DNA from: Pyrinomonadaceae bacterium
GTDB taxonomy: Bacteria > Acidobacteriota > Blastocatellia > Pyrinomonadales > Pyrinomonadaceae
Length of the DNA stretch: 64,000 nucleotides
Direction: 5' to 3'
Assembly (NCBI GenBank): GCA_050246275.1
Contig: JBFWWI010000001.1
Location: 1,116,913 to 1,180,912 of the forward strand
Shown: in pieces, positions 4,082 to 25,718 of the stretch
Layout of the letters: each line of letters starts with the position of its first letter
How positions within the stretch are numbered: the stretch's first letter is position 1
The notes under the pieces: model-generated
Database searches by the model: none
What the model was told of the DNA's origin: nothing
The model's input: the letters and a program-made list of their open reading frames with translations, nothing else
Made by a program: the position numbers and the translations under genes

Positions 4082-4957
4082 ATGAGAAGCAGAATCTTTG
4101 TTCTTTCGCTCGCCATTGTCCTCACATTCGGCGCGCTCAATGCCGCGATCGCGCAGGAGGAGGTGATGACGAATGACGAGGTCATCTCCCTCACCAAGGC
4201 AGGCCTCGCCGGGTCGGTGATCATCGGAAAGATCCGTACGTCAAAGTCCAACTTCGATATGTCGACCGATGCCCTTATCAAGCTGAAGCAGGCCGGCGTC
4301 GGCGATGACGTGGTCGGTGCGATGCTCGAGGCAAAGACCGGCAGATCGACGGAGAGTTCGTCCGGTGCGGCACCGGTCGGCGCTACCGGGGACCCGAACG
4401 ACCCGATGGCGAAACACAGCTACGGCATCTACCTTTACGAAGAAGATGGCGGACAGCGAAAGATGACACAGCTGCAGCCGAACGTCTCAGCCCAGAACCG
4501 CACAGGCGGTGCATTTACGGCGTCGATCACACCCTTTGGACTTGGCAAGGTCAAGACCAAGGCGAACCTGCCGGGACGCAATGCCAGCCTTCAGATCAGA
4601 TCGACCTCGCCCGTCTTTTACTTCTATCTCGATGTCTCGAGCGGCGGCCTGAATACGGCCAGCGGCATCCCCTCGACACCGAACGAATTCACCCTCGTCC
4701 GTTTTAACCAGCGGAGCGATAACCGCGAGGTGACGATCGCAAAGGCGAACTCGTGGGGCGGCAAGGGCGGCCTTTCGGACGAGTATGTGGTTCCCCTCAA
4801 GGCCGAAGACCTCGGCAACGGAGTTTTCCGCGTGACCGCCGCTGTCGACCTGAAGAAAGGCGAATACGGCTTTTATCTTGTCAATTCCGGCAACTCGAAT
4901 ACGAGCGCGGGCGTCGGCTCTAAGTTCTTTGATTTCGGCGTCAATATGACCCCGTAG
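4082..4957 (+). CDS. Hypothetical secreted protein
   Basis: GGAG-type RBS ahead of the ATG; signal peptide MRSRIFVLSLAIVLTFGALNAAIAQ. No family motif recognised. Confidence 0.6.
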   Translation: MRSRIFVLSLAIVLTFGALNAAIAQEEVMTNDEVISLTKAGLAGSVIIGKIRTSKSNFDMSTDALIKLKQAGVGDDVVGAMLEAKTGRSTESSSGAAPVGATGDPNDPMAKHSYGIYLYEEDGGQRKMTQLQPNVSAQNRTGGAFTASITPFGLGKVKTKANLPGRNASLQIRSTSPVFYFYLDVSSGGLNTASGIPSTPNEFTLVRFNQRSDNREVTIAKANSWGGKGGLSDEYVVPLKAEDLGNGVFRVTAAVDLKKGEYGFYLVNSGNSNTSAGVGSKFFDFGVNMTP

Positions 4958-6496: not shown

Positions 6497-6565
6497 AGTT
6501 TCCAAGCAGGTTTCCAAGCGGTTTCCAAGCTGGTTTCCAAGCTGGTTTCCAAACGGTTTCCAGGC
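6497..6565. repeat. Six head-to-tail copies of an 11-12 bp unit (consensus GGTTTCCAAGC)
   Basis: Read directly: aGTTTCCAAGC aGGTTTCCAAGC GGTTTCCAAGC tGGTTTCCAAGC tGGTTTCCAAaC GGTTTCCAgGC. Intergenic. Confidence 0.9.
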
Positions 6566-6743
6566 AGATGCCGCGCGAGGTTTACGCTGAGGCTAACCCT
6601 CTTGTTTGCTTTGGTTTACACCGGCGGACCGGGTGATCGCCCGAGATCGGCCAGGGGAGACGTTTGGTGCGTACGTGCCGTCCGGCGCATAATGTATGTT
6701 CCCCTTTCGTGCCCGCTCTCGTTGTGATAGTGAGGAGAGACCA

Positions 6744-7245: not shown

Positions 7246-7695
7246 TGTGGGTGACGTTTGGTGGGACTGAATTCTACGGACCTACCAAAGGGATCGACTA
7301 AACTATGTCAGGTGCCCGATGCTGCCGTGGATGTCAGGCGGTTTTGCGATACGAACGCCTCGACAGGGTTATCGATCCTTTTGGTTGGCGGTTTCAAAGG
7401 CATCGTCGATGTGATCGAGCTTGGACCGATCGGGCGATTTTTTCGGCTTCGGGGCGATCGGCCTTCCGCCTCGTACCTTTCTCCGTGATCCGTGGGTGGG
7501 ATCACCTCAAACTGATTTATACCCCAATGCTCGTGATCGCTCATATGTGTCTCGGTCGCCTTCGGATCGTTCCTTCAGAATGTTTTGATTATAGTGGCGA
7601 TCTGCTCGTCCTGTATGTACGGTTGCACACACACACTCAGCGGGCAGCGACGATCGGGGGATTCCGGGGAACATTCATCTTTCGAAAGCGACAGA

Positions 7696-8934
7696 TCACT
7701 TGGCCTCGCCGGAACGCCGGCGGCGGATGAGCGAACGGGCGGCGGCGAGAGCCTCTTTGTAGGCGTCTTTGTCGGTCTGCGGGCTGCACATCACAGCTCG
7801 GTCGTCGATGAAGGCGGACGCGACGGGCTTTCCGCGGCCGATGTAAACATCGCGAAAGGGTATCTTGTACCGCTCGAGCCAATCGATGATCTTTACACGC
7901 ATACGGACCGGGTCGATCATTCTGCCCGTCTCGTCGCCGAGGTCTTCGCTGCAGCGGGACGAATAGATCACGATGTCCGCTATCTTGTCGAGGGCGAGGG
8001 CGAAATCGCGGGCACCCTTGAGCGGTTCGCCGATCAGCTCAGGGCCTTTCCAGCCGTCGTACGAGGCGAGAACGCCGTCGAGGTCGATGCACACGCGCGG
8101 CTTGCGCTTGACCGCCGGCTTTTTAGGTTTAGGGGCGGGTTTTGGATCTTTCTTTACTGCACGCTTCTTTACTCTTGGCAGCGGTGCAGGGCGTGCGGAG
8201 AGCATCGCCTCGATCGCTTCGCCGCCCTCGAGCCATTCCTGCCCGATCATCGGGTCGAAATTCCTTACGCGTGTGAAATGCTTTCGCGTATGATGTCGGC
8301 CCGGCAGACGCAGCGTATAAGGCAGATCGTCCGGCCCGACTTCCCGCTTTGGCGGAAAGATCTCCGGCTTGCGCGGAAGGTCGAGTTGCTGCCAATCGGA
8401 GCGGACCGAATCGGCATAATCGTAAACATCGGCGAGCGGGTATTCGCGGTCGAGAAGTACCCATATGTGATAACCTCCCACGCCGTTGCTGTCGAAGACG
8501 AGCGGATCGAAACCGGCTGTCCGCAGACGCCCGGCCCAGACCATCGCGGCGTTCAGATTGGCCTCAGCGATCTCGCCGGCATTCGCCAGCGTTTCGTCGT
8601 GTAGGTCGATATCGATCGCGAACCACTTGGCCGTCTGATGATCGCTGATCGAATGAAGGCCGATGAGGTGCGAAACGACGCGGCCGGCAAAATGACGCTT
8701 GAGCTTGGTGATCGTCACCATATCGGTGCCCGCCGCTCGACGTTCTTTGATAGGCAACATCACAACGCGCACCTCGCCGTTGCGAAGCGTGTACTGGCTC
8801 CACACATCGCGGCGGTTCGCGAGGTGCTCCATCGCCCACTCGGCGAGTCGCTCGGAATAGTTTTGCCATTCCGACGCGATCCAGAGCATCCGGCGGTCGC
8901 CCGCAAATTCGATACCTATGTCGGTAGCTGCCAT
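7696..8934 (-). CDS. Archaeo-eukaryotic primase-polymerase (AEP/PrimPol) domain fused through a Lys/Pro-rich linker to a C-terminal HAD-superfamily phosphatase domain
   Basis: AEP motifs: FAIDIDLHD (DxD), NGVGGYHIWVLL (sGxxH) and LRLPGRHHTRKH (motif III region). Linker: KKRAVKKDPKPAPKPKKPAVKRKPR. HAD motifs: I CIDLDGVL, II VIYSSR, III GRGKP, IV AFIDDR. Confidence 0.75.
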   Translation of the reverse strand: MAATDIGIEFAGDRRMLWIASEWQNYSERLAEWAMEHLANRRDVWSQYTLRNGEVRVVMLPIKERRAAGTDMVTITKLKRHFAGRVVSHLIGLHSISDHQTAKWFAIDIDLHDETLANAGEIAEANLNAAMVWAGRLRTAGFDPLVFDSNGVGGYHIWVLLDREYPLADVYDYADSVRSDWQQLDLPRKPEIFPPKREVGPDDLPYTLRLPGRHHTRKHFTRVRNFDPMIGQEWLEGGEAIEAMLSARPAPLPRVKKRAVKKDPKPAPKPKKPAVKRKPRVCIDLDGVLASYDGWKGPELIGEPLKGARDFALALDKIADIVIYSSRCSEDLGDETGRMIDPVRMRVKIIDWLERYKIPFRDVYIGRGKPVASAFIDDRAVMCSPQTDKDAYKEALAAARSLIRRRRSGEAK

Positions 8935-8964
8935 CGAGGAATGCCTTCGCCTAAGCGATCGTGG

Positions 8965-10431
8965 TCAGGAGGCCTTCTCCCAACCGCCTACAAAATATTT
9001 CTTGGCCATTTCGTCCAGGAGCCGGCGTGCGGTCTTTTCGTTATTAGAGACCTTGATGTCGCGCTCGAGCGGCACCTTGCGGTTCGGGCTGAAGTCAGTG
9101 CCATAAACGACGTAACCGGGAAAATCGCCGGTGTCTTCTTTATTCGTCTTCCACAAGAGCAGCTTGCGGACCATCGGCGAGCCATGCATCACCTTGGTAT
9201 AGACTATGCGCTCGAGCAGTTCGCTGGGCTTAAGCTCGCCTGCACGGGCCGGTTTATCGGCATCCTGCACCGGAACGAGATCTTTTACCTGGCTGATGTT
9301 CACGTCCTCGCTGTTCGCCTCTTTATCGTCACGAAAACGTACGAATTGCGGGGAGATGACGCTGACGAGCGGCATTCGCGAAAGCGCAGAGTACCGCTTG
9401 CCGTTGAAATCCAGGACCATCTTTTTTACAGGGTCGCCCTTGGAGTTCTCAGGGATCAGGTCGAGAAAGGAGATCTCGATAACGGGTCCGGGCTCGATCA
9501 TCTCGTACGCGACGTAGTCATTGTTGACGGCGACGTACTCCGACGGAACGATCCGCTTGCGAAGGTCGGCAAAGATCTCTTTCCGATCATCCTCGGTAAA
9601 ACCTCCGCCGACCCGGGCGATCTCATGAAATGTACCATCGTCACGCATCACGGCGACGAGCAGATCGTGAAGCATGCCCTTGCGGTTATCGCTGCCCTCG
9701 GAAAAGCCGATGATCGCGGCATCGAGGTTATGGCGAGACTTTATTTTGTAATAGCCGAGCCGGTCATGCCGCAGGACGACGCCCTCAGCACCGTCGCCGA
9801 TAACCCAGTTGGTGAACGCGTCCTCGATCGTTTGGTGTTTGTCGGCGACAATGTGCTCGGCGGCCCGCACCAGCTTTCCGTTCTTGAACCATTTGTCGAG
9901 ATGTTTAAAGACCTCGGCAACGGCATCGACCGGCTTGCCCTCGAGCTGGGCGATATCAAAGACGGCAAGGCCGATACGCTTGAGATCGGCAGCGGACTTT
10001 GGATTTCTCAAGAGCGAAACGATCGCCTGCACCGGATTCCGGTTTCCCATATCGCCGGTGACGTACAGTTCCGCAGCGAGAACGCAGGACGTGACCTTTG
10101 CCTTCCTCAAAAGCTCGGCCGTTTCCTCAAAACATGGCAACCCGACGCGGACCGTGCCCCCGGGATTTACGCTGAAAATAGACGCGCCGTCGTAAACGAC
10201 ATATGTGAACTCGCCGTCGTACTTTCGGATAGCGTAGACCGAACGAACTTTCGGGAGCGACTGAATATCATGCGACGCGACGGCCCGCATCGCGCCGCTC
10301 AGGCGTCGGCGGTACTCGCGGGCCTTGCCCTGCCACGTCGGATCGGCGAGGTCCTGGGCTTTCCCGACCGCGTATTCACCTTTCTTTACGGTGAGTTTCT
10401 TTTTGTCGATGCTATCTTTCTTTTTCGCCAT
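8965..10431 (-). CDS. ATP-dependent DNA ligase (minimal NTase+OB type) with a ~110-aa C-terminal extension
   Basis: Motif I AIRKYDGEF (Lys70), III AELYV, IV EGVVLRH, V YYKIKSRHNLDAAIIG; OB region VGGGFTEDDRKEIF; motif VI QFVRFRDDK. The N-terminus is Lys-rich. The extra C-terminal domain ends ...ARRLLDEMAKKYFVGGWEKAS. Confidence 0.85.
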   Translation of the reverse strand: MAKKKDSIDKKKLTVKKGEYAVGKAQDLADPTWQGKAREYRRRLSGAMRAVASHDIQSLPKVRSVYAIRKYDGEFTYVVYDGASIFSVNPGGTVRVGLPCFEETAELLRKAKVTSCVLAAELYVTGDMGNRNPVQAIVSLLRNPKSAADLKRIGLAVFDIAQLEGKPVDAVAEVFKHLDKWFKNGKLVRAAEHIVADKHQTIEDAFTNWVIGDGAEGVVLRHDRLGYYKIKSRHNLDAAIIGFSEGSDNRKGMLHDLLVAVMRDDGTFHEIARVGGGFTEDDRKEIFADLRKRIVPSEYVAVNNDYVAYEMIEPGPVIEISFLDLIPENSKGDPVKKMVLDFNGKRYSALSRMPLVSVISPQFVRFRDDKEANSEDVNISQVKDLVPVQDADKPARAGELKPSELLERIVYTKVMHGSPMVRKLLLWKTNKEDTGDFPGYVVYGTDFSPNRKVPLERDIKVSNNEKTARRLLDEMAKKYFVGGWEKAS

Positions 10432-11134
10432 CGCCGTCCAGGATCTTTGGCCGCTTCAGTTCCATATTCGATAAATGAAGGATCAGACAGTAGGTATCCT
10501 TTTTGGTCCGGCCCTCGAGAAACGCGTTATAAGAACGCCCGCCGCGATTCATTACGATCGGCTGATCGCCTTTTTCTCCGCCGCGGACGAGCAGCAGCGA
10601 ACCGCGTTTCTCCAGGTCTTTTGCCATCTCATAAAGAAAGTCGAAGGTAAGGCCATTGATATGAACCAATTGCTTCTTACCGGTAAAAACAAAGCGGTGG
10701 ATCGCGTCTTCTTTCTTGATGTACTTTCCGGTCCATTTCAGGGGCTCGTCCGTATTGATATTCTGGAGTTCCTTTCGTCGTGGACGACGATCACGCAGTG
10801 TCCCGTCCGGGTCCTTGATCACCTCAAATTCGTCCACAACGTGAACGATCCCGCCTGGCGAAACATATACTCGCGAGGTCTCAGCCAGGAACTTGCCAAA
10901 AAGTTCGATGTTGATCTCCGGGTCTTCCTTGATCAACGCCATAGCGACCGAATCGAGTTTTTTTCGGCGCTTCATCAGTTGCGGAAGATCATGATCGATG
11001 TCGCTTTTCAGGATCTTTCGTGTCGTTATCGGGTCGCCGTTCCGGTCCCGGTAATAGACCTCACGTTCAGGCATGAGACCTTCCATCGCCACGACCGCGT
11101 CCCGGTTTTTCGCATTGCTGATGTTGATCGGCAT
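10412..11134 (-). CDS. Hypothetical protein (240 aa), operonic with the ligase
   Basis: Its stop overlaps the ligase start by 20 nt, and it starts 29 nt after the upstream ORF. No motif recognised by eye. Confidence 0.6.
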   Translation of the reverse strand: MPINISNAKNRDAVVAMEGLMPEREVYYRDRNGDPITTRKILKSDIDHDLPQLMKRRKKLDSVAMALIKEDPEINIELFGKFLAETSRVYVSPGGIVHVVDEFEVIKDPDGTLRDRRPRRKELQNINTDEPLKWTGKYIKKEDAIHRFVFTGKKQLVHINGLTFDFLYEMAKDLEKRGSLLLVRGGEKGDQPIVMNRGGRSYNAFLEGRTKKDTYCLILHLSNMELKRPKILDGDGEKER

Positions 11135-11163
11135 ATTGGCCCTGCTTTTACTCCCTGCTTTTA

Positions 11164-11772
11164 CTAAAGAAGATCGAAACTAATGTCGTCGGCCGAGATC
11201 TCCTGCTCCTCGACCTGATCGAGCCTAGCGGCCTGATTCAACCCGACAAAACCGATCTCTGCCCGCTTTCCGACGATCATAAATGCGTCTTTGCCCTGGC
11301 CGACAACGAATGCATCGTCGTATTCAAGTCCGCCGCGATAGCTGAATGGGAACGTATATATCAGGCCGGCAGAAAGATGATCTGTAAGAAGATCGAGCGG
11401 CCGCTCACCCGGGGACAAATAATAAACAGACTTCACTATCAGATCGAGATAATCGTCGATCTTGCTCTTCTGAAGTATGTTCGGGCCGTCAAAGGAAGAC
11501 GGTACCCGCTTGATCACTTCACCGTTCTCGTTGACGGGGACCAGGTCGGCCCGATCGATAGAGTCGCCTTTCGCATCGACGGTGGCGAGCGCCGTGCCGC
11601 CCTTGTCGATCAGGGTCATACCGTCTGCGTCGAGAACCTTTATCTCCGCAGGCCTGCCTTTTTCGTCGAACGCCTCGATCTCGACCGAGCCATAAAGCTT
11701 CTCACGGTCGACCTTAATTATCTCGACCGGAAACTCTTCGCCATCCAATGAAAGTGTCAATATCCTAGCCAT
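11164..11772 (-). CDS. Hypothetical protein (202 aa), first large gene of the ligase/PrimPol operon; faint Ku-like features
   Basis: Same strand, 29-nt gap to the next ORF. The N-terminus MARILTLSLDGEEFPVEIIKV and the central IDDYLDLIVKSVYYLSPGE resemble bacterial Ku patterns (M..iWkG.isFGLV.iPvkly and id..yf..sYyl.P), judged by eye only. Confidence 0.6.
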   Translation of the reverse strand: MARILTLSLDGEEFPVEIIKVDREKLYGSVEIEAFDEKGRPAEIKVLDADGMTLIDKGGTALATVDAKGDSIDRADLVPVNENGEVIKRVPSSFDGPNILQKSKIDDYLDLIVKSVYYLSPGERPLDLLTDHLSAGLIYTFPFSYRGGLEYDDAFVVGQGKDAFMIVGKRAEIGFVGLNQAARLDQVEEQEISADDISFDLL

Positions 11773-11950: not shown

Positions 11951-12154
11951 TCAGGCAAAGGTCTCCCGTGCCACCTCTCGCCGATGCCAGCACTTTGTAC
12001 AAAAGCGGCTTTCGCGAAGTTCTGACATCGTCAGGTCCTCAAAATCAGGGAGACAGCTAATCAGGTATTGCTGATCCTCCGTAAGCTCGGACCAGTTTCG
12101 GACTTTCATTGCGTTGCATCTCGGACATTGCGATTCTGAACCAAAGGCTTCCAT
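11951..12154 (-). CDS. Small zinc-ribbon-like protein (67 aa)
   Basis: Two Cys pairs, CPRC ... CTKC. Same strand and about 180 nt upstream of the operon. Whether it is really coding is uncertain. Confidence 0.4.
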   Translation of the reverse strand: MEAFGSESQCPRCNAMKVRNWSELTEDQQYLISCLPDFEDLTMSELRESRFCTKCWHRREVARETFA

Positions 12155-18308: not shown

Positions 18309-18725
18309 ATGCCCAGAACCTACGAGCGAGGATTCACGCTCATCGAATTGCTTTTGGTACTTGTGATCGCAGGGCTTGTCGCTACGGTCGCAGTTCCTTC
18401 ATTCTTGAAGGCTCGCGATGCCGCGGACTCGGCGGTGGCGGTCGGACGCCTTCGTGCGATGCATACCGACCAGTCGATGTACCGGATCCAGAATTCGCGT
18501 TATGCCCGCCTTTCCGAGCTGAATGCATTTGCGAACAATGCCCACGGCAAGACCGTCGGCTCGACGCTGCGACATCGCGATTTCATCTTTTTGATGTTTC
18601 CAAATCCGACGGACCAGAGTTTAAGGCGCAATTACAATATTATCGCGTACCGGGTCCGTGAGGCCAGGGTCATTTCCCAATACGATATGGGAGAAGATGG
18701 GCAGATCGCGACCGTACTCCCGTAA
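18309..18725 (+). CDS. Prepilin-type N-terminal cleavage/methylation domain protein (pilin/pseudopilin-like)
   Basis: MPRTYERGFTLIELLLVLVIAGLVATVAVPSF is a class III signal sequence (G|FTLIE). Confidence 0.7.
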   Translation: MPRTYERGFTLIELLLVLVIAGLVATVAVPSFLKARDAADSAVAVGRLRAMHTDQSMYRIQNSRYARLSELNAFANNAHGKTVGSTLRHRDFIFLMFPNPTDQSLRRNYNIIAYRVREARVISQYDMGEDGQIATVLP

Positions 18726-18747
18726 CACGGCAATCCCCAAATACAAG

Positions 18748-20676
18748 ATGCTACAGGGAAACAACACTCCTGCCAGATCAGATAGCAGTCCGGCTCTTAT
18801 GCCTCGGCTGCGGCACCTTGGTGAAAGGGCCCTTCATTTAAGGATCGTTGAAGAGTTTCTTACCCAACTCGAGCTGCACTTACTAAAATCGACGAACGAA
18901 CACTTCAACCTTGATCCGGTCAAGCAGTGTTTGAGCGAACTCAAGACGTTGAGCGATGATCAAGCGGAGAGCGATCGCCGAAAGCGAGTCGAATTTCAGT
19001 TGGCCCATGAACTAGTGCTCTGGCAAGATCACCTTGCGAAACGCGACGAACAGATCGAGGCCTATCATATCCGGCGGTATTGTGACGGCCTGCGAAAGCC
19101 TCTCGATAGCGAGGTTTATGTCGCCCTCGCACGTTTTTACCGTGAGATCCCGCGCTCACGGCTTAGCCTCAGCAAGTTCGATCTGGCCATCACGCGTGCT
19201 TACAGCGTGCAGCTTACCGACATACGTCGACAGCTTGTCTCACCTAGAAAAGCGATCGCGGAGAGCATATCGGCCCATTATTGTTCATGGGACCGCGTTG
19301 CCGTCACCTCTCAGGGATCTCACCGGGACGAGGTCGTATTCGACGCATTTCTCAACGAATGCAACACTATCGCCGATTTCCATTCGCTCACAGCCTCGCG
19401 TCTCTTCGATCGCATCCGGGAATACAAGTCCGAACTGGGGGACCGATTTTGGGACCCAATCGTCGTGGCTGCCGCTATTGAATGCAACGTTCTGGTCGGC
19501 AACAAGCTGAACTTTCTGATGGCTAAGGCGAGTGAAATGCTGGGCGAGCGACTCGGATCGGAATTTGACTTTGCGGGAGCGTTTCAGGATGCGTCGCCGA
19601 ACGCCGGCAATTACATCTCCGAGGTGATAAGAGCGATGGATAAGAAGGATTCGCTTATTACCTCGGTATCGGAATCGGACGACCTGAAGTTTCTCCGGTC
19701 GCGTTTGGCGCTCACCGATACCGTACGCAATGCGGCCGAAACAACGAACGACGAAGCAGGCGAAGAGCCGGAGGCGGCATTCGCCTTGTCGATCAGCACA
19801 CCCGAATTCCAGTCGATCCTATCGCTTCTTTCTCAGCATAATCCCTCAACCAGGAGCATCGTGAGGTTTATCGATTCTCTGCAGATCGGCCATTCACTGG
19901 ATCTCTCGGATTTTCTATTCGGGGAGGACGACCTGCCCGATCCGTTGGGACGCGAGGCGTTAGCCACCATCCTCTCACTCGAATCTCTGCGATCGGTGGA
20001 GCTCCACGAGCCAAAGGAGCTGCCCTCGATCGTACGAGATCGTGTTATGGCGCTTCTGAGAACGGCCGAAGACCTTGGCAACCGCATCGAACGATCGCTA
20101 TCGGAAGCGAATGTATCAGCCGGTCGGCGGCTGATAGTCGCGAACCGGCTTCTCGAAGCACGTATGCGGACCGAGCGCGCCGTCTACAAATTCACGAGCC
20201 GGGGCCTAGGTATAGCTAAGGAAGAGGAATCCGATGAACCGGCCGTCGAACCGATGCCGTCGACCTTCTCTTATGTCGACTATGCGTCGCTTAGCGCAAA
20301 CAAGTGGCTGGTAGGGGCAACACTCGCCGCCTTAGTACTTTCCGGCTTCCTGTATTTCTCTGCGGGCAGCGGTACAGCCTCGCTCCCGGACGACGTCGAA
20401 AGAATTGAGGCCTCGCGGCTCCCCGGCGGAAGAGTGCTGAGCAATGCGCACCGTCAGGGCAGCACCCTTTATGTGGTCGCGACCGATGCATGGCGTCAAA
20501 AATCCGATTCGGAAAAGACCGAGTCGCTAAAGGACCTGATCGGCATCCCTTCAAAAACGAGACTTGAGACCGTGCTCGTCATGGACGATCAGGGACAACC
20601 GCTCGCCGACATATCCGGCAACGGTATGAACCTCAACACCGTCGCACCTGTGTATTCTGAAGAAGGAAAGAATTAG
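18748..20676 (+). CDS. Large hypothetical protein with one C-terminal TM segment
   Basis: The ATG at 18748 follows the pilin-like gene. The protein is mostly helical/acidic with a TM segment WLVGATLAALVLSGFLYF. No motif recognised. Confidence 0.55.
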   Translation: MLQGNNTPARSDSSPALMPRLRHLGERALHLRIVEEFLTQLELHLLKSTNEHFNLDPVKQCLSELKTLSDDQAESDRRKRVEFQLAHELVLWQDHLAKRDEQIEAYHIRRYCDGLRKPLDSEVYVALARFYREIPRSRLSLSKFDLAITRAYSVQLTDIRRQLVSPRKAIAESISAHYCSWDRVAVTSQGSHRDEVVFDAFLNECNTIADFHSLTASRLFDRIREYKSELGDRFWDPIVVAAAIECNVLVGNKLNFLMAKASEMLGERLGSEFDFAGAFQDASPNAGNYISEVIRAMDKKDSLITSVSESDDLKFLRSRLALTDTVRNAAETTNDEAGEEPEAAFALSISTPEFQSILSLLSQHNPSTRSIVRFIDSLQIGHSLDLSDFLFGEDDLPDPLGREALATILSLESLRSVELHEPKELPSIVRDRVMALLRTAEDLGNRIERSLSEANVSAGRRLIVANRLLEARMRTERAVYKFTSRGLGIAKEEESDEPAVEPMPSTFSYVDYASLSANKWLVGATLAALVLSGFLYFSAGSGTASLPDDVERIEASRLPGGRVLSNAHRQGSTLYVVATDAWRQKSDSEKTESLKDLIGIPSKTRLETVLVMDDQGQPLADISGNGMNLNTVAPVYSEEGKN

Positions 20677-24210: not shown

Positions 24211-24287
24211 ACTTTTCCCCGCTAGAAGTCGAAAGGCAGGAGGTTCGCCTTCTGTCTTTTTCTATTTTGGGTAAGTACAATATTGAT

Positions 24288-25718
24288 ATGTTTCGCCGCA
24301 TCTATATGGACCACAGCGCGACCACGCCGGTCGACCCGCGAGTGGTCGAGGCGATGATGCCTTACCTGACCGAAGCATTCGGCAACGCGTCGAGCATCCA
24401 TTACTTCGGCCAACAAGCCAGGGCTGCGGTCGATAAGGCCCGGCATCAGGTAGCACATCTGATCGGGGCTCGTCCGAACGAGATCGTCTTCACATCGGGC
24501 GGGACGGAATCGAATAACCTCGCGATCAAGGGGGTTCTCGATAGGTGGAACGCGGACATCCTTGTCCGCATGAGCGCCGCTTCGACGCGAACGAGCGCGG
24601 AGCATCCTCACGCCCAAATAGACAATGCGAGTTTCTCCGGAGGAATCGGCGTTGGGGGACGGAGCGGGGACACTCCTGTCCCCATGAGCGTCGCCTCGAC
24701 GCGAACGAGCGCGGAGCATCCTCACGCCCTGACCGGCAACGCGAGTTTCGCCGGAGGAACCGGCGATGGGGACAAGAGTGTCCCCGCTCCGCACATCATC
24801 ACATCCTCGATCGAGCACTCGGCGGTCAAGAACGTCTGCGAAGACCTTGAAAAGCAGGGCTATCGAGTGACGTATCTGCCCGTTTACGAGGACGGTATCG
24901 TCCGCATCGAAGACGTGAAGGCGGCGATAACGGACGACACTCTGCTTATCTCGATAATGGCTGCGAATAACGAGATAGGCACAATTCAGCCGATCGAAGA
25001 AGTCGGAAAGTTTGTAAGAGAACTGCGGGCCGGCGGACAGAAGATCTGGTTTCACACCGACGCGGTACAGGCCGCGGGAAAGGTCCCGATCAACGTCGAA
25101 GAGATCGGCTGCGACCTGCTCTCGATCTCGGCCCACAAGCTGTACGCACCTAAGGGCGTCGGAGCATTGTACGTCCGACGCGGCGTCCGCCTTCATCCGC
25201 AGAATATCGGCGGGCATCAGGAACGCGAACGTCGCGGAGGGACCGAATCCGTCCCGAATATCGCCGCTTTCGGCAAAGCCTGCGAGCTGGCCGAGGAGGA
25301 AATTGCATCGGAATCGACAACGCTTAAAGATCTGCGGGACAAGCTCGAAACCCGCGTCGGCGAGATGATCCCGGACGTCGTCTTCAATGGCGACCGCGAC
25401 CGCCGCCTGCCGAACATCTCGAACATCTCATTTCGCTCCGTCGAGGGCGAGGGCCTGCTCATCAACCTGGATATGCAGGGCATAGCCGTCTCGACCGGCT
25501 CGGCCTGCTCCTCCGGCACGCTCGAACCGTCCCCCGTCATCCGAGCCCTCGGACCGCAGACGCCATCGTCCGCCGGTGGTGATGACGAAGACCGTGCCCG
25601 CGGAGCCATCCGCTTTTCCCTCGGCCGCACCAACACGGCCGCCGACGTCGACCGCCTCCTCGAAGTCCTCCCAACCTCCGTCGAGAACCTCCGCCGCCTA
25701 ACTGCCTCAGCCCGCTAA
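24288..25718 (+). CDS. Cysteine desulfurase (NifS/IscS class) carrying an ~76-aa in-frame insertion
   Basis: IYMDHSATTP, GGTESNN, HIITSSIEHSAV, PLP-lysine SISAHKLYAPKG and active-site GSACSSG are all present. The segment between IKGVLDRW and HIITSS is far longer than the short link I recall for E. coli IscS. Confidence 0.85.
   Translation: MFRRIYMDHSATTPVDPRVVEAMMPYLTEAFGNASSIHYFGQQARAAVDKARHQVAHLIGARPNEIVFTSGGTESNNLAIKGVLDRWNADILVRMSAASTRTSAEHPHAQIDNASFSGGIGVGGRSGDTPVPMSVASTRTSAEHPHALTGNASFAGGTGDGDKSVPAPHIITSSIEHSAVKNVCEDLEKQGYRVTYLPVYEDGIVRIEDVKAAITDDTLLISIMAANNEIGTIQPIEEVGKFVRELRAGGQKIWFHTDAVQAAGKVPINVEEIGCDLLSISAHKLYAPKGVGALYVRRGVRLHPQNIGGHQERERRGGTESVPNIAAFGKACELAEEEIASESTTLKDLRDKLETRVGEMIPDVVFNGDRDRRLPNISNISFRSVEGEGLLINLDMQGIAVSTGSACSSGTLEPSPVIRALGPQTPSSAGGDDEDRARGAIRFSLGRTNTAADVDRLLEVLPTSVENLRRLTASAR
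24554..24785. repeat. Two tandem 114-bp units bounded by three short hairpins, inside the cysteine desulfurase CDS
   Basis: catgagcg recurs at 24569 and 24683 (period 114 = 38 codons). Hairpins: GGACAtcctTGTCC (24554), GGGGACActccTGTCCCC (~24667) and GGGGACAagagTGTCCCC (~24768). Confidence 0.85.

Follow-up and report, generated by a model that had tools for sequence, protein, structure and literature searches.

What does a primase-polymerase do when it is joined in one polypeptide to a small phosphatase and carried on the ordinary chromosome of a soil acidobacterium? The question is raised by a gene in a 64,000-nucleotide stretch of DNA from Pyrinomonadaceae bacterium (assembly GCA_050246275.1, contig JBFWWI010000001.1, positions 1,116,913 to 1,180,912), here called the window, to which all positions refer. 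The original prediction, made from the sequence without database searches, had read the gene product as an AEP primase-polymerase connected through a basic linker to a HAD phosphatase, and had offered two roles for the HAD domain, the healing of DNA 3'-ends or the hydrolysis of (deoxy)nucleotides. The gene was found to be the last of a four-gene cassette, preceded by two genes called X and Y here and by the gene for an ATP-dependent DNA ligase (Table 1). On balance, the fusion probably acts as the end-processing subunit in a non-canonical Ku/ligase module for DNA end joining that is specific to the Pyrinomonadaceae lineage.

The open reading frame (ORF) and all the motifs quoted for it earlier were present on the minus strand. 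Those of the AEP part were FAIDIDLHD (aa 105-113), GGYHIWVLL (153-161) and LRLPGRHH (208-215), those of the HAD part CIDLDGVL (282-289), VIYSSR (322-327), GRGKP (366-370) and AFIDDR (374-379), and the linker PRVKKRAVKKDPKPAPKPKKPAVKRKPR was located at aa 253-280. More than 671 homologs were retrieved from 5.8 billion proteins; among the 120 matches listed, lengths were about 410 aa, identities were 62-97%, and every named protein was annotated as 'hypothetical protein'. Eight catalytic or hallmark motifs, searched with strict patterns, were each intact in 115-120 of 120 orthologs, and mean pairwise identity across orthologs was 73% for the AEP domain, 65% for the HAD domain and 28% for the linker. 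The intact motifs and the identities of the two domains indicate that both are under purifying selection as enzymes. A family profile, searched against PDB sequences, was built from a 28-sequence alignment in which D108, D110, H112, H156, R209, G212, R213, H214 and H215 of the AEP domain and D284, D286, R327, K369, D377 and D378 of the HAD domain were invariant. The AlphaFold2 model of the fusion had a mean predicted local distance difference test score (pLDDT) of 77; values exceeded 90 in the AEP core and over most of the HAD domain and fell below 50 in the linker (257-275).

The earlier domain calls were thus borne out by profiles, by the AlphaFold2 model and by Foldseek, and orthologs and model together confirmed AEP-linker-HAD as a real architecture, well above chance expectation. 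An assembly artefact was excluded as its origin, because the same architecture occurs on hundreds of independent contigs. Judged by its conserved motifs and modelled folds, the protein is a genuine bifunctional enzyme, consisting of an AEP and a predicted HAD phosphatase. When 1.84 billion cluster representatives were searched exhaustively with the profile, the full fusion was confined to about nine clusters at 50% identity. No publication describing the fusion or the cassette was found in the searchable literature, from which many subscription papers are missing so that absence is no proof; this, together with the annotation of the named homologs, agrees with the earlier view that the fusion is uncharacterised. 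Two antisense ORFs on the plus strand (7585-8604 and 8638-10650; 339 and 670 aa) overlap the fusion and ligase genes; their translations are low in complexity and rich in Arg, Ala and Gly, and they look like by-products of a GC-rich coding strand.

Table 1. Features of the cassette and of the AEP-HAD fusion, with positions in the window
Feature	Position	Strand	Size, residues or description	Basis
X	11164..11772	-	202 aa, first cassette gene	Predicted Ku fold (AlphaFold2 and Foldseek)
X acidic C-terminal tail (…EEQEISADDISFDLL)	11167..11217	-	Disordered, conserved	Alignment including 37%-identity orthologs
Y	10412..11134	-	240 aa, conserved protein between X and ligase	Homologs and synteny
ATP-dependent DNA ligase	8965..10431	-	488 aa, NTase and OB domains	Pfam DNA_ligase_A_M and DNA_ligase_A_C above cutoff
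AEP-HAD fusion gene	7696..8934	-	412 aa, ATG start, last cassette gene	ORF list and homologs
AEP domain	8179..8892	-	aa 15-252	Match to CAPP Prim-Pol 7NQD/7NQF, Foldseek 7P9J, clade alignment
AEP motif I codons	8599..8613	-	D108-I-D110-L-H112, predicted metal-binding acidic pair	Invariant; aligns with CAPP D-I-D
Lys/Arg/Pro-rich disordered linker	8098..8178	-	aa 253-279	pLDDT <50 at 257-275
Capless HAD phosphatase domain	7714..8097	-	aa 280-407	1XPJ profile match, Foldseek, TIGR01689, invariant residues

The four genes lie on one strand in the order X - Y - ligase - AEP/HAD and are closely packed, with a gap of 29 nt between X and Y, an overlap of 20 nt between Y and the ligase, and a gap of 30 nt between the ligase and the fusion. 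X, Y and the ligase were found upstream of the fusion in that order by tblastn at 54 of 60 loci, the count being limited to those whose upstream flank extends for 2.95 kb or more. In a lineage at 36-42% protein identity the order was permuted to AEP/HAD-X-Y-ligase with all four genes still linked, so that they have stayed together through rearrangement. In several loci (L029, L042, L066, L040 and L025/L065) the cassette is interrupted by an additional 0.8-2.4 kb, located either between the genes for the ligase and AEP-HAD or among X, Y and the ligase, with the gene order intact; it therefore tolerates insertions. One divergent fusion (44% identity; L097, 7001-8175) was called as two genes of 314 and 71 aa, which match both domains; a frameshift or an assembly error would account for the split. 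This copy stands head-to-head with the gene for a 971-aa PD-(D/E)XK nuclease, not with X, Y and the ligase.

The first gene, X, encodes a protein that likely has a Ku fold, as judged from its predicted structure. Its AlphaFold2 model had a mean pLDDT of 71.5 and a core above 88, with low confidence at aa 28-62 and in the tail at 173-202 (<50). When this model was compared with PDB structures using Foldseek, all of the top 50 matches were Ku (E = 2.6e-6, probability 1.0), the first being the bacterial Ku homodimers of M. tuberculosis and B. subtilis (8V53, 9I91, 9VNQ, 9IG8), followed by Ku70/80 (1JEQ among the matches). The TM-scores against Ku were 0.35-0.45. Residues 28-62 are among the most conserved parts of X, yet AlphaFold2 left them unplaced in the monomer. 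The dimer-forming, DNA-encircling arms of Ku would be expected to behave in this way in a monomer model, and low TM-scores are then expected as well, because the arm region would be misplaced.

By sequence, X had no match in Pfam (including Ku PF02735), NCBIfam, PHROGs, PADLOC, or phmmer and profile searches of the PDB. A Ku profile was made from eight annotated plasmid Ku proteins, fished with an M. tuberculosis Ku sequence that served as bait only. Aligned with X using hhalign, it gave E = 0.13-0.29, which is not significant, even when orthologs at 37% identity were added. The top alignment fell on the Ku 'PYYLxP…LLRxAL' segment and is not counted as evidence. As no Ku match was seen at the sequence level, the assignment of X is structural and predicted only.

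Canonical bacterial Ku has a basic C-terminus, whereas X ends in an acidic tail, whose pattern …EE.EISADDLDFDLL is retained in orthologs at 37% identity. Basic segments lie instead on the cassette partners of X, in the linker of the fusion and at the N-terminus of the ligase. The linker is 22-36 aa long across 104 orthologs, with 41% K+R, 4% D+E and a net charge of +4 to +14. Because its composition is conserved while its sequence is not, a tether to DNA, as the original prediction had it, is plausible; the linker could equally dock on the conserved acidic tail of the Ku-like protein. The tail itself looks like a protein-docking peptide, with the AEP-HAD linker and the N-terminus of the ligase as candidate partners, and this distribution of charges suggests charge-complementary docking.

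The ligase carries the adenylation motif K70-Y-D-G-E and begins with the basic segment MAKKKDSIDKKKLTVKK (10381-10431). Its nearest PDB sequences were archaeal ligases (E = 1e-11), and it matched phrog_114; NCBIfam dnl1 stayed under its cutoff. The ligase model of non-homologous end joining (NHEJ), NHEJ_ligase_lig TIGR02779, gave 48 bits vs a cutoff of 227.75. Past its OB domain the ligase continues for about 110 aa in a C-terminal extension (8968-9309, minus strand), which matched no Pfam family and no PDB sequence significantly.

Y had 1721 homologs with a mean column identity of 79% and was always found between X and the ligase. It matched nothing by sequence in Pfam, NCBIfam, PHROGs, PADLOC or the PDB, nor any protein of annotated plasmids or phages, and no paralogy was detectable between X and Y. 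A Ku-like reading of Y, drawn by eye from motif resemblance, was rejected as unsupported and internally inconsistent, and the same Ku profile gave no significant hhalign match with it. Promoter and terminator scans performed no better than on shuffled sequence, and no conserved operator-like motif was found upstream of X in 55 loci, several of which have sigma-70-like boxes. A perfect 13-nt tandem duplication (two copies of AGTAAAAGCAGGG on the minus strand, 11140-11165) fills the gap between X and Y and may be a duplicated ribosome-binding region. Upstream of X lies an ORF of 67 aa (11951-12154, minus strand) with a zinc-ribbon-like CPRC…CTKC pattern; it was found again only in a near-identical contig (L003), and therefore probably does not belong to the cassette.

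Taken as an end-joining module, the cassette would work as follows. The Ku-like protein X would bind broken DNA ends, where AEP-HAD would be retained by its basic linker, bound either to the DNA or to the acidic tail of X. The HAD domain would then remove blocking 3'-phosphates to leave 3'-OH ends, a substrate suggested by the gene context, and would so stand in for the phosphoesterase (PE) of LigD. The AEP domain would extend the end or fill gaps, and the stand-alone ATP-dependent ligase would seal. A polymerase rather than a primase is proposed because the PriCT and helicase parts of the relatives of this AEP have been lost. Of the two roles first considered for the phosphatase, end healing is thus favored by the operon with an ATP-dependent ligase and a protein of predicted Ku fold, and a polynucleotide is the substrate that we infer from the capless domain, its covalent coupling to a polymerase, the operon, and a sub-threshold similarity to HAD_SAK_2, a HAD family found in proteins of nucleic-acid repair.

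The proposed division of labor resembles that of bacterial NHEJ, in which Ku recruits LigD, the polymerase domain (POL) fills gaps, PE turns a 3'-phosphate into a 3'-OH and the ligase domain (LIG) seals, with a domain complement that varies by species (PMC8656161). The 3'-healing function is modular in NHEJ, since some LigDs lack PE (PMC8656161). The cassette likewise encodes together a Ku-fold protein, an AEP polymerase, a 3'-end-healing phosphatase and an ATP-dependent ligase, all as predicted activities, and splits them over separate operonic genes as archaeal and some bacterial NHEJ systems do. It differs from Ku-LigD throughout, its parts being all either non-orthologous or strongly divergent, in that X is invisible to Ku sequence models and has an acidic rather than a basic tail, that the AEP belongs to another clade, that HAD takes the place of PE, that the protein Y is additional, and that the ligase scores far below the NHEJ ligase cutoff. 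In terms of sequence membership, the cassette is outside every model defining that system (Ku models, LigD POL, PE and the LIG equivalog).

Two further systems invite comparison. The PNKP-type enzymes (T4 Pnkp, mammalian PNKP) have in common with the fusion a HAD DxDG motif and an open active site, and their removal of DNA 3'-phosphates in break repair is the functional analogy proposed for the fusion HAD; mammalian PNKP serves Ku-dependent NHEJ. Unlike them, neither fusion nor cassette has a kinase domain, and the partner of the phosphatase is a polymerase, not a kinase. In the mycobacterial LigC/Prim-PolC excision repair, a stand-alone ATP-dependent ligase is reportedly operonic with a stand-alone AEP gap-filling polymerase. 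The operonic pair of ligase and AEP is similar, and Prim-PolC was among the fold matches of the fusion AEP; the AEP is distant, however (TM ~0.35), and that system has neither a HAD fusion nor a Ku-like operon partner.

In the phosphatase domain, the four HAD motifs occur in order and are invariant or near-invariant (I, D284-L-D286-G-V; II, S325/S326-R327, as S/T325-x-R327; III, K369; IV, D377-D378), and profile and predicted model agree on a Rossmannoid fold, placing the domain in the HAD superfamily and not in some other fold. Family members also have a flap, Y292-D-G-W295-K-G. The family profile matched 1XPJ along its entire length (E = 8e-7, or 6.8e-9 with a more diverse HAD-only profile). 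Using the HAD model, Foldseek returned 1XPJ (TM 0.61), AfhF (9IQW, TM 0.52-0.57) and then GmhB, and also the 3'-phosphatase of T4 Pnkp (5UJ0, TM 0.45, E = 0.017) and CTD phosphatases (SCP3). The NCBIfam model TIGR01689, 'capsule biosynthesis phosphatase', was matched at E = 8.4e-5 and 22.5 bits vs a cutoff of 162; by these comparisons 1XPJ/TIGR01689 is the nearest relative, yet the domain falls outside the curated family. 1XPJ (Vibrio cholerae VC0232), the EcbF-BcbF proteins of TIGR01689 and the phage protein AfhF have the same minimal capless architecture and four HAD motifs. They differ in being stand-alone proteins of about 125 aa with no known function or with sugar-bisphosphate substrates, and the fusion HAD has a flap signature of its own.

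The choice between a PNKP-type and an NT5C-type enzyme, which had been suggested as the deciding check, was won by neither. A PNKP-type identity was rejected, there being no significant profile membership and only a weak PHROG match and Foldseek likeness: Pfam PNK3P matched neither the window protein nor the members of the HAD subfamily scanned, and in PHROGs the fusion matched a phosphatase family and, weakly, polynucleotide kinase (E = 0.0076). An NT5C-type identity was rejected as well. The NT5C family PF06941 was matched by two of 12 HAD subfamily members (best E = 0.0045), and profile matches in the PDB to mitochondrial and cytosolic deoxyribonucleotidases had E >= 0.2 and covered motif I only. 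In the secondary structure of the AlphaFold model, motif I is followed by a loop of about 23 residues with no cap insertion, and hence no helical C1 cap. The best Pfam family for the subfamily was HAD_SAK_2 (four of 12 members, best E = 2.3e-4, below threshold), and similarity to NIF was weak and sub-threshold.

These data also bear on the strongest alternative, that the repair cassette is as described but its HAD domain works on small molecules instead of DNA ends. As a (deoxy)nucleotidase or a sugar-phosphate phosphatase, this domain would either shape the nucleotide pool locally or clear away an inhibitory by-product. Its motif I, DLDGVLA.Y, resembles the DMDGVLADF of NT5C, the weak deoxyribonucleotidase and NT5C matches point the same way, and the closest characterised fold relatives, AfhF and GmhB, are sugar-bisphosphate phosphatases. 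The model, however, has the short loop where an NT5C-type enzyme has its helical cap, all the NT5C matches are non-significant, and a pool-shaping enzyme would have no obvious need of a polycationic tether to a polymerase or of linkage to Ku-like and ligase genes. A capless HAD architecture fits macromolecular substrates. The phage auxiliary-gene contexts of stand-alone HAD homologs, set out below, count in favor of a small-molecule enzyme, which on the whole we consider unlikely.

The flap signature Y-DGW(K/R)G…IG.P.PGA was common only to the fusions and to certain phage or stand-alone HADs, the stand-alone ones being 128-240 aa long and about 45% identical to the fusion HAD. Two stand-alone loci (L098, 1399-1803, and L099, 7001-7729) have phage-like surroundings; one of these genes directly follows a Mu-type portal gene, and HNH, glycosyltransferase and methyltransferase genes surround the other, which carries a fused DUF1653. 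These contexts suggest that phages repeatedly carry this small-HAD subfamily as an auxiliary gene.

The AEP domain has the motifs W-F-A-I-D108-I-D110-L-H112 (motif I), DSNGVGGYH156 (motif II), PE191IFPP and LRLPGRHH215, and with the acidic pair of motif I, the His of motif II and the catalytic fold of the predicted model it belongs in the AEP superfamily, as originally called. The D-I-D of motif I aligns with that of CAPP and is kept in 80-100% of 20 clade members, while GGYH156 aligns with CAPP RGYH, does not vary within the family and is found in 95% of clade members. Candidates for the third acidic metal ligand (motif III) are E191, in PEIFPP aligned with CAPP EIFP, and D148 of DSNG. Against PDB sequences, the family profile found the CAPP Prim-Pol domain 7NQD/7NQF of Marinitoga at E = 5e-4, and Foldseek with the AEP model ranked CAPP 7P9J best (E = 2e-6, TM 0.66 normalised to target), followed by LigD polymerase domains, the Methanocella (Mpa) NHEJ polymerase and Prim-PolC (5OP0/6SA1). 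The Pfam family AEP-TOTE (PF22548) gave 23.1 bits (E = 6e-5) on the window protein, under its gathering cutoff of 27; many orthologs carry a precomputed PF22548 match, and AEP relatives at E ~1e-40 to 1e-50 reach 40-58 bits, over the cutoff. On these scores the fusion is in the AEP-TOTE clade by transitivity and is not a member by the curated cutoff.

The exhaustive profile search found 4498 relatives in total, for most of which the match was restricted to profile positions ~17-250 and lay N-terminally in proteins of 300-1100 aa. Sampled AEP relatives score above the AEP-TOTE threshold and carry a PriCT_2, PriCT_1 or DUF3987 helicase-type module, an architecture of primase-helicases of phages, plasmids and integrated elements with which viral structure matches agree. 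Aligned with 19 of them, the window AEP keeps all the clade hallmarks (LVNRxDVW, W-x-A-x-D-x-D-x-H, DSNGxGGYH, PExFP, LRLPGRHH and WLEG), and after WLEG it has the linker and HAD where the 19 have PriCT and helicase. CAPP (7NQD/7NQF/7P9J) and the primases linked to PriCT and helicase are therefore both its best sequence and fold matches and its nearest likeness in motifs (DxDxH, DSNGxGGYH, PExFP, LRLPGRHH, WLEG); the fusion differs from CAPP/AEP-TOTE primases in having a basic linker and HAD and no PriCT, helicase or TPR parts. By alignment and profile, this AEP is derived from the mobile-element primase clade (AEP-TOTE/CAPP-like) and not from that of the LigD polymerases. The earlier AEP assignment stands, with the correction that this AEP is not LigD-Pol-like.

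An origin in mobile elements raises a second alternative, in which the cassette is a module of a mobile element or of a conflict system, either domesticated or still active (replication initiation, TOTE-like or other anti-phage), its AEP priming or synthesising DNA and its HAD acting as effector or modifier. The closest AEP relatives, with PriCT_1/2 or DUF3987, are indeed mobile-element and phage primases and match the AEP model of the 'TOTE conflict system', the closest HAD relatives are phage-borne, and two divergent fusions adjoin unrelated genes, one of them the large PD-(D/E)XK nuclease. A TOTE conflict system is made of TPR, OB, TBP and Effector, with neighboring TPR-CSD/OB, TBP and effector genes (PMC12458937). 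The neighbors of the fusion are instead the ligase, X, Y, and DUF305, fasciclin and M14 peptidase genes, and none of the TPR, OB or TBP components was found among the cassette neighbors. PADLOC matched none of the four cassette proteins, no CRISPR context was found around the fusion, and the window has neither integrase nor tRNA gene. Annotated phages matched the HAD part only, in two phages and weakly. A viral or mobile origin of the fusion was rejected, since IMG/VR held no close relatives under search patterns specific to the close family. Together with the loss of the primase-specific PriCT and helicase modules, and with the distribution described next, this makes a mobile or defense module improbable.

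Relatives of the fusion occurred in 133 GTDB species genomes in a scan of one genome per species. The 80 listed are metagenome-assembled genomes (MAGs) labelled Pyrinomonadaceae, Pyrinomonadales, Blastocatellia, 'Chloracidobacterium' or Acidobacteria gp4, save one contig labelled 'Acidisarcina'. That contig (L003; JAJNPX010000197.1, 'Acidisarcina sp. MAG_20') is 97-99% identical to the window over all four cassette proteins and is probably mis-binned or mislabelled. Y is 100% identical to a protein from a Pyrinomonadaceae MAG, which places the window in that family. Across the family the fusion is conserved at 60-75% identity, and the remaining window is ordinary chromosome, with genes for GlnE, PriA, a class A PBP, a GGDEF-EAL protein, histidine kinases and peptidases; the flanks of the cassette likewise carry ordinary chromosomal genes. 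As far as can be told from these sequences, inheritance of the fusion is vertical, core-like, chromosomal and lineage-specific.

A third alternative, in which the module repairs RNA or RNA-DNA junctions, with HAD healing 2'/3'-phosphate RNA ends, AEP adding ribonucleotides and the ligase sealing RNA-terminated ends, draws on HAD_SAK_2 ('Swiss Army Knife' RNA repair proteins) as the best Pfam family of the HAD subfamily, on the weak polynucleotide kinase PHROG, and on the preference of NHEJ AEP polymerases for ribonucleoside triphosphates and of NHEJ ligases for a 3' ribonucleotide (PMC8656161), but is the least probable of the three, because the cassette ligase matches DNA ligase families, a Ku fold of X implies duplex DNA ends, the HAD_SAK_2 matches are sub-threshold, and among the cassette proteins Pfam, NCBIfam and PHROGs reveal neither a kinase nor a cyclic phosphodiesterase nor a ligase of the RtcB/Rnl type.

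Several points nevertheless weigh against an end-joining module. The Ku call for X comes from one predicted model built on a shallow alignment, with the low TM-scores and the sequence and profile nulls reported above. Among characterised proteins, those most closely related to the HAD domain have sugar phosphates as substrates (AfhF is an arabinose-1,5-bisphosphate phosphatase, and GmhB is similar in this respect), 1XPJ is of no known function, and the closest stand-alone HADs lie in phage-like contexts without repair partners. The AEP comes from a clade of replicative mobile-element primases rather than from that of NHEJ polymerases. Six fusions (L067, L070, L077, L085, L087 and L097) have no cassette partners nearby.

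A bolder and more tentative form of the end-joining reading, possible though somewhat short of probable, is that Pyrinomonadaceae (Acidobacteriota subdivision 4) hold a complete and unrecognised apparatus for joining double-strand breaks out of non-orthologous parts. It would comprise a cryptic Ku with an acidic recruiting tail, Y as a new partner, a minimal ligase, and a mobile-element-derived Prim-Pol fused to a HAD 3'-phosphatase, the eukaryote-like solution of a HAD acting with Ku having been reached independently. Bacterial NHEJ censuses count Ku and LigD through sequence models (e.g., PMC7719229). If the reading is right, such censuses give too low a count of end joining in soil Acidobacteria, which are abundant and mostly uncultured, and Ku-dependent NHEJ is more widespread than they indicate. 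The role of 3'-phosphatase in NHEJ would then have been filled independently by a bacterial HAD, as by PNKP in eukaryotes, and a mobile-element primase would have been recruited to chromosomal repair. A cryptic Ku and the parallel with eukaryotic end processing by Ku plus PNKP would matter to specialists in DNA repair. The AEP-HAD fusion is a compact predicted polymerase and end-healing enzyme without a characterised counterpart; four small recombinant proteins would suffice for a direct test of the idea, and a minimal kit for end processing and ligation could serve as a reagent.

A few features of the window lie outside the cassette. No Rfam RNA family was found in it. Between the fasciclin-domain and DUF305 genes, a tandem array (6498-6572) holds about 5.6 copies of an 11-12-nt unit, GTTTCCAAGCG, some 125 nt upstream of the DUF305 start, and could be a repeated operator site. 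Two ORFs on the plus strand, 18658-20676 (672 aa) and 4082-4957 (291 aa), matched no Pfam family at E <= 0.001. At 24547-24771 a 114-nt unit occurs twice with 85% match; long ORFs overlap there on both strands (24222..25217, minus; 24267..25718, plus), and this stretch has the highest GC content of the window (0.599).

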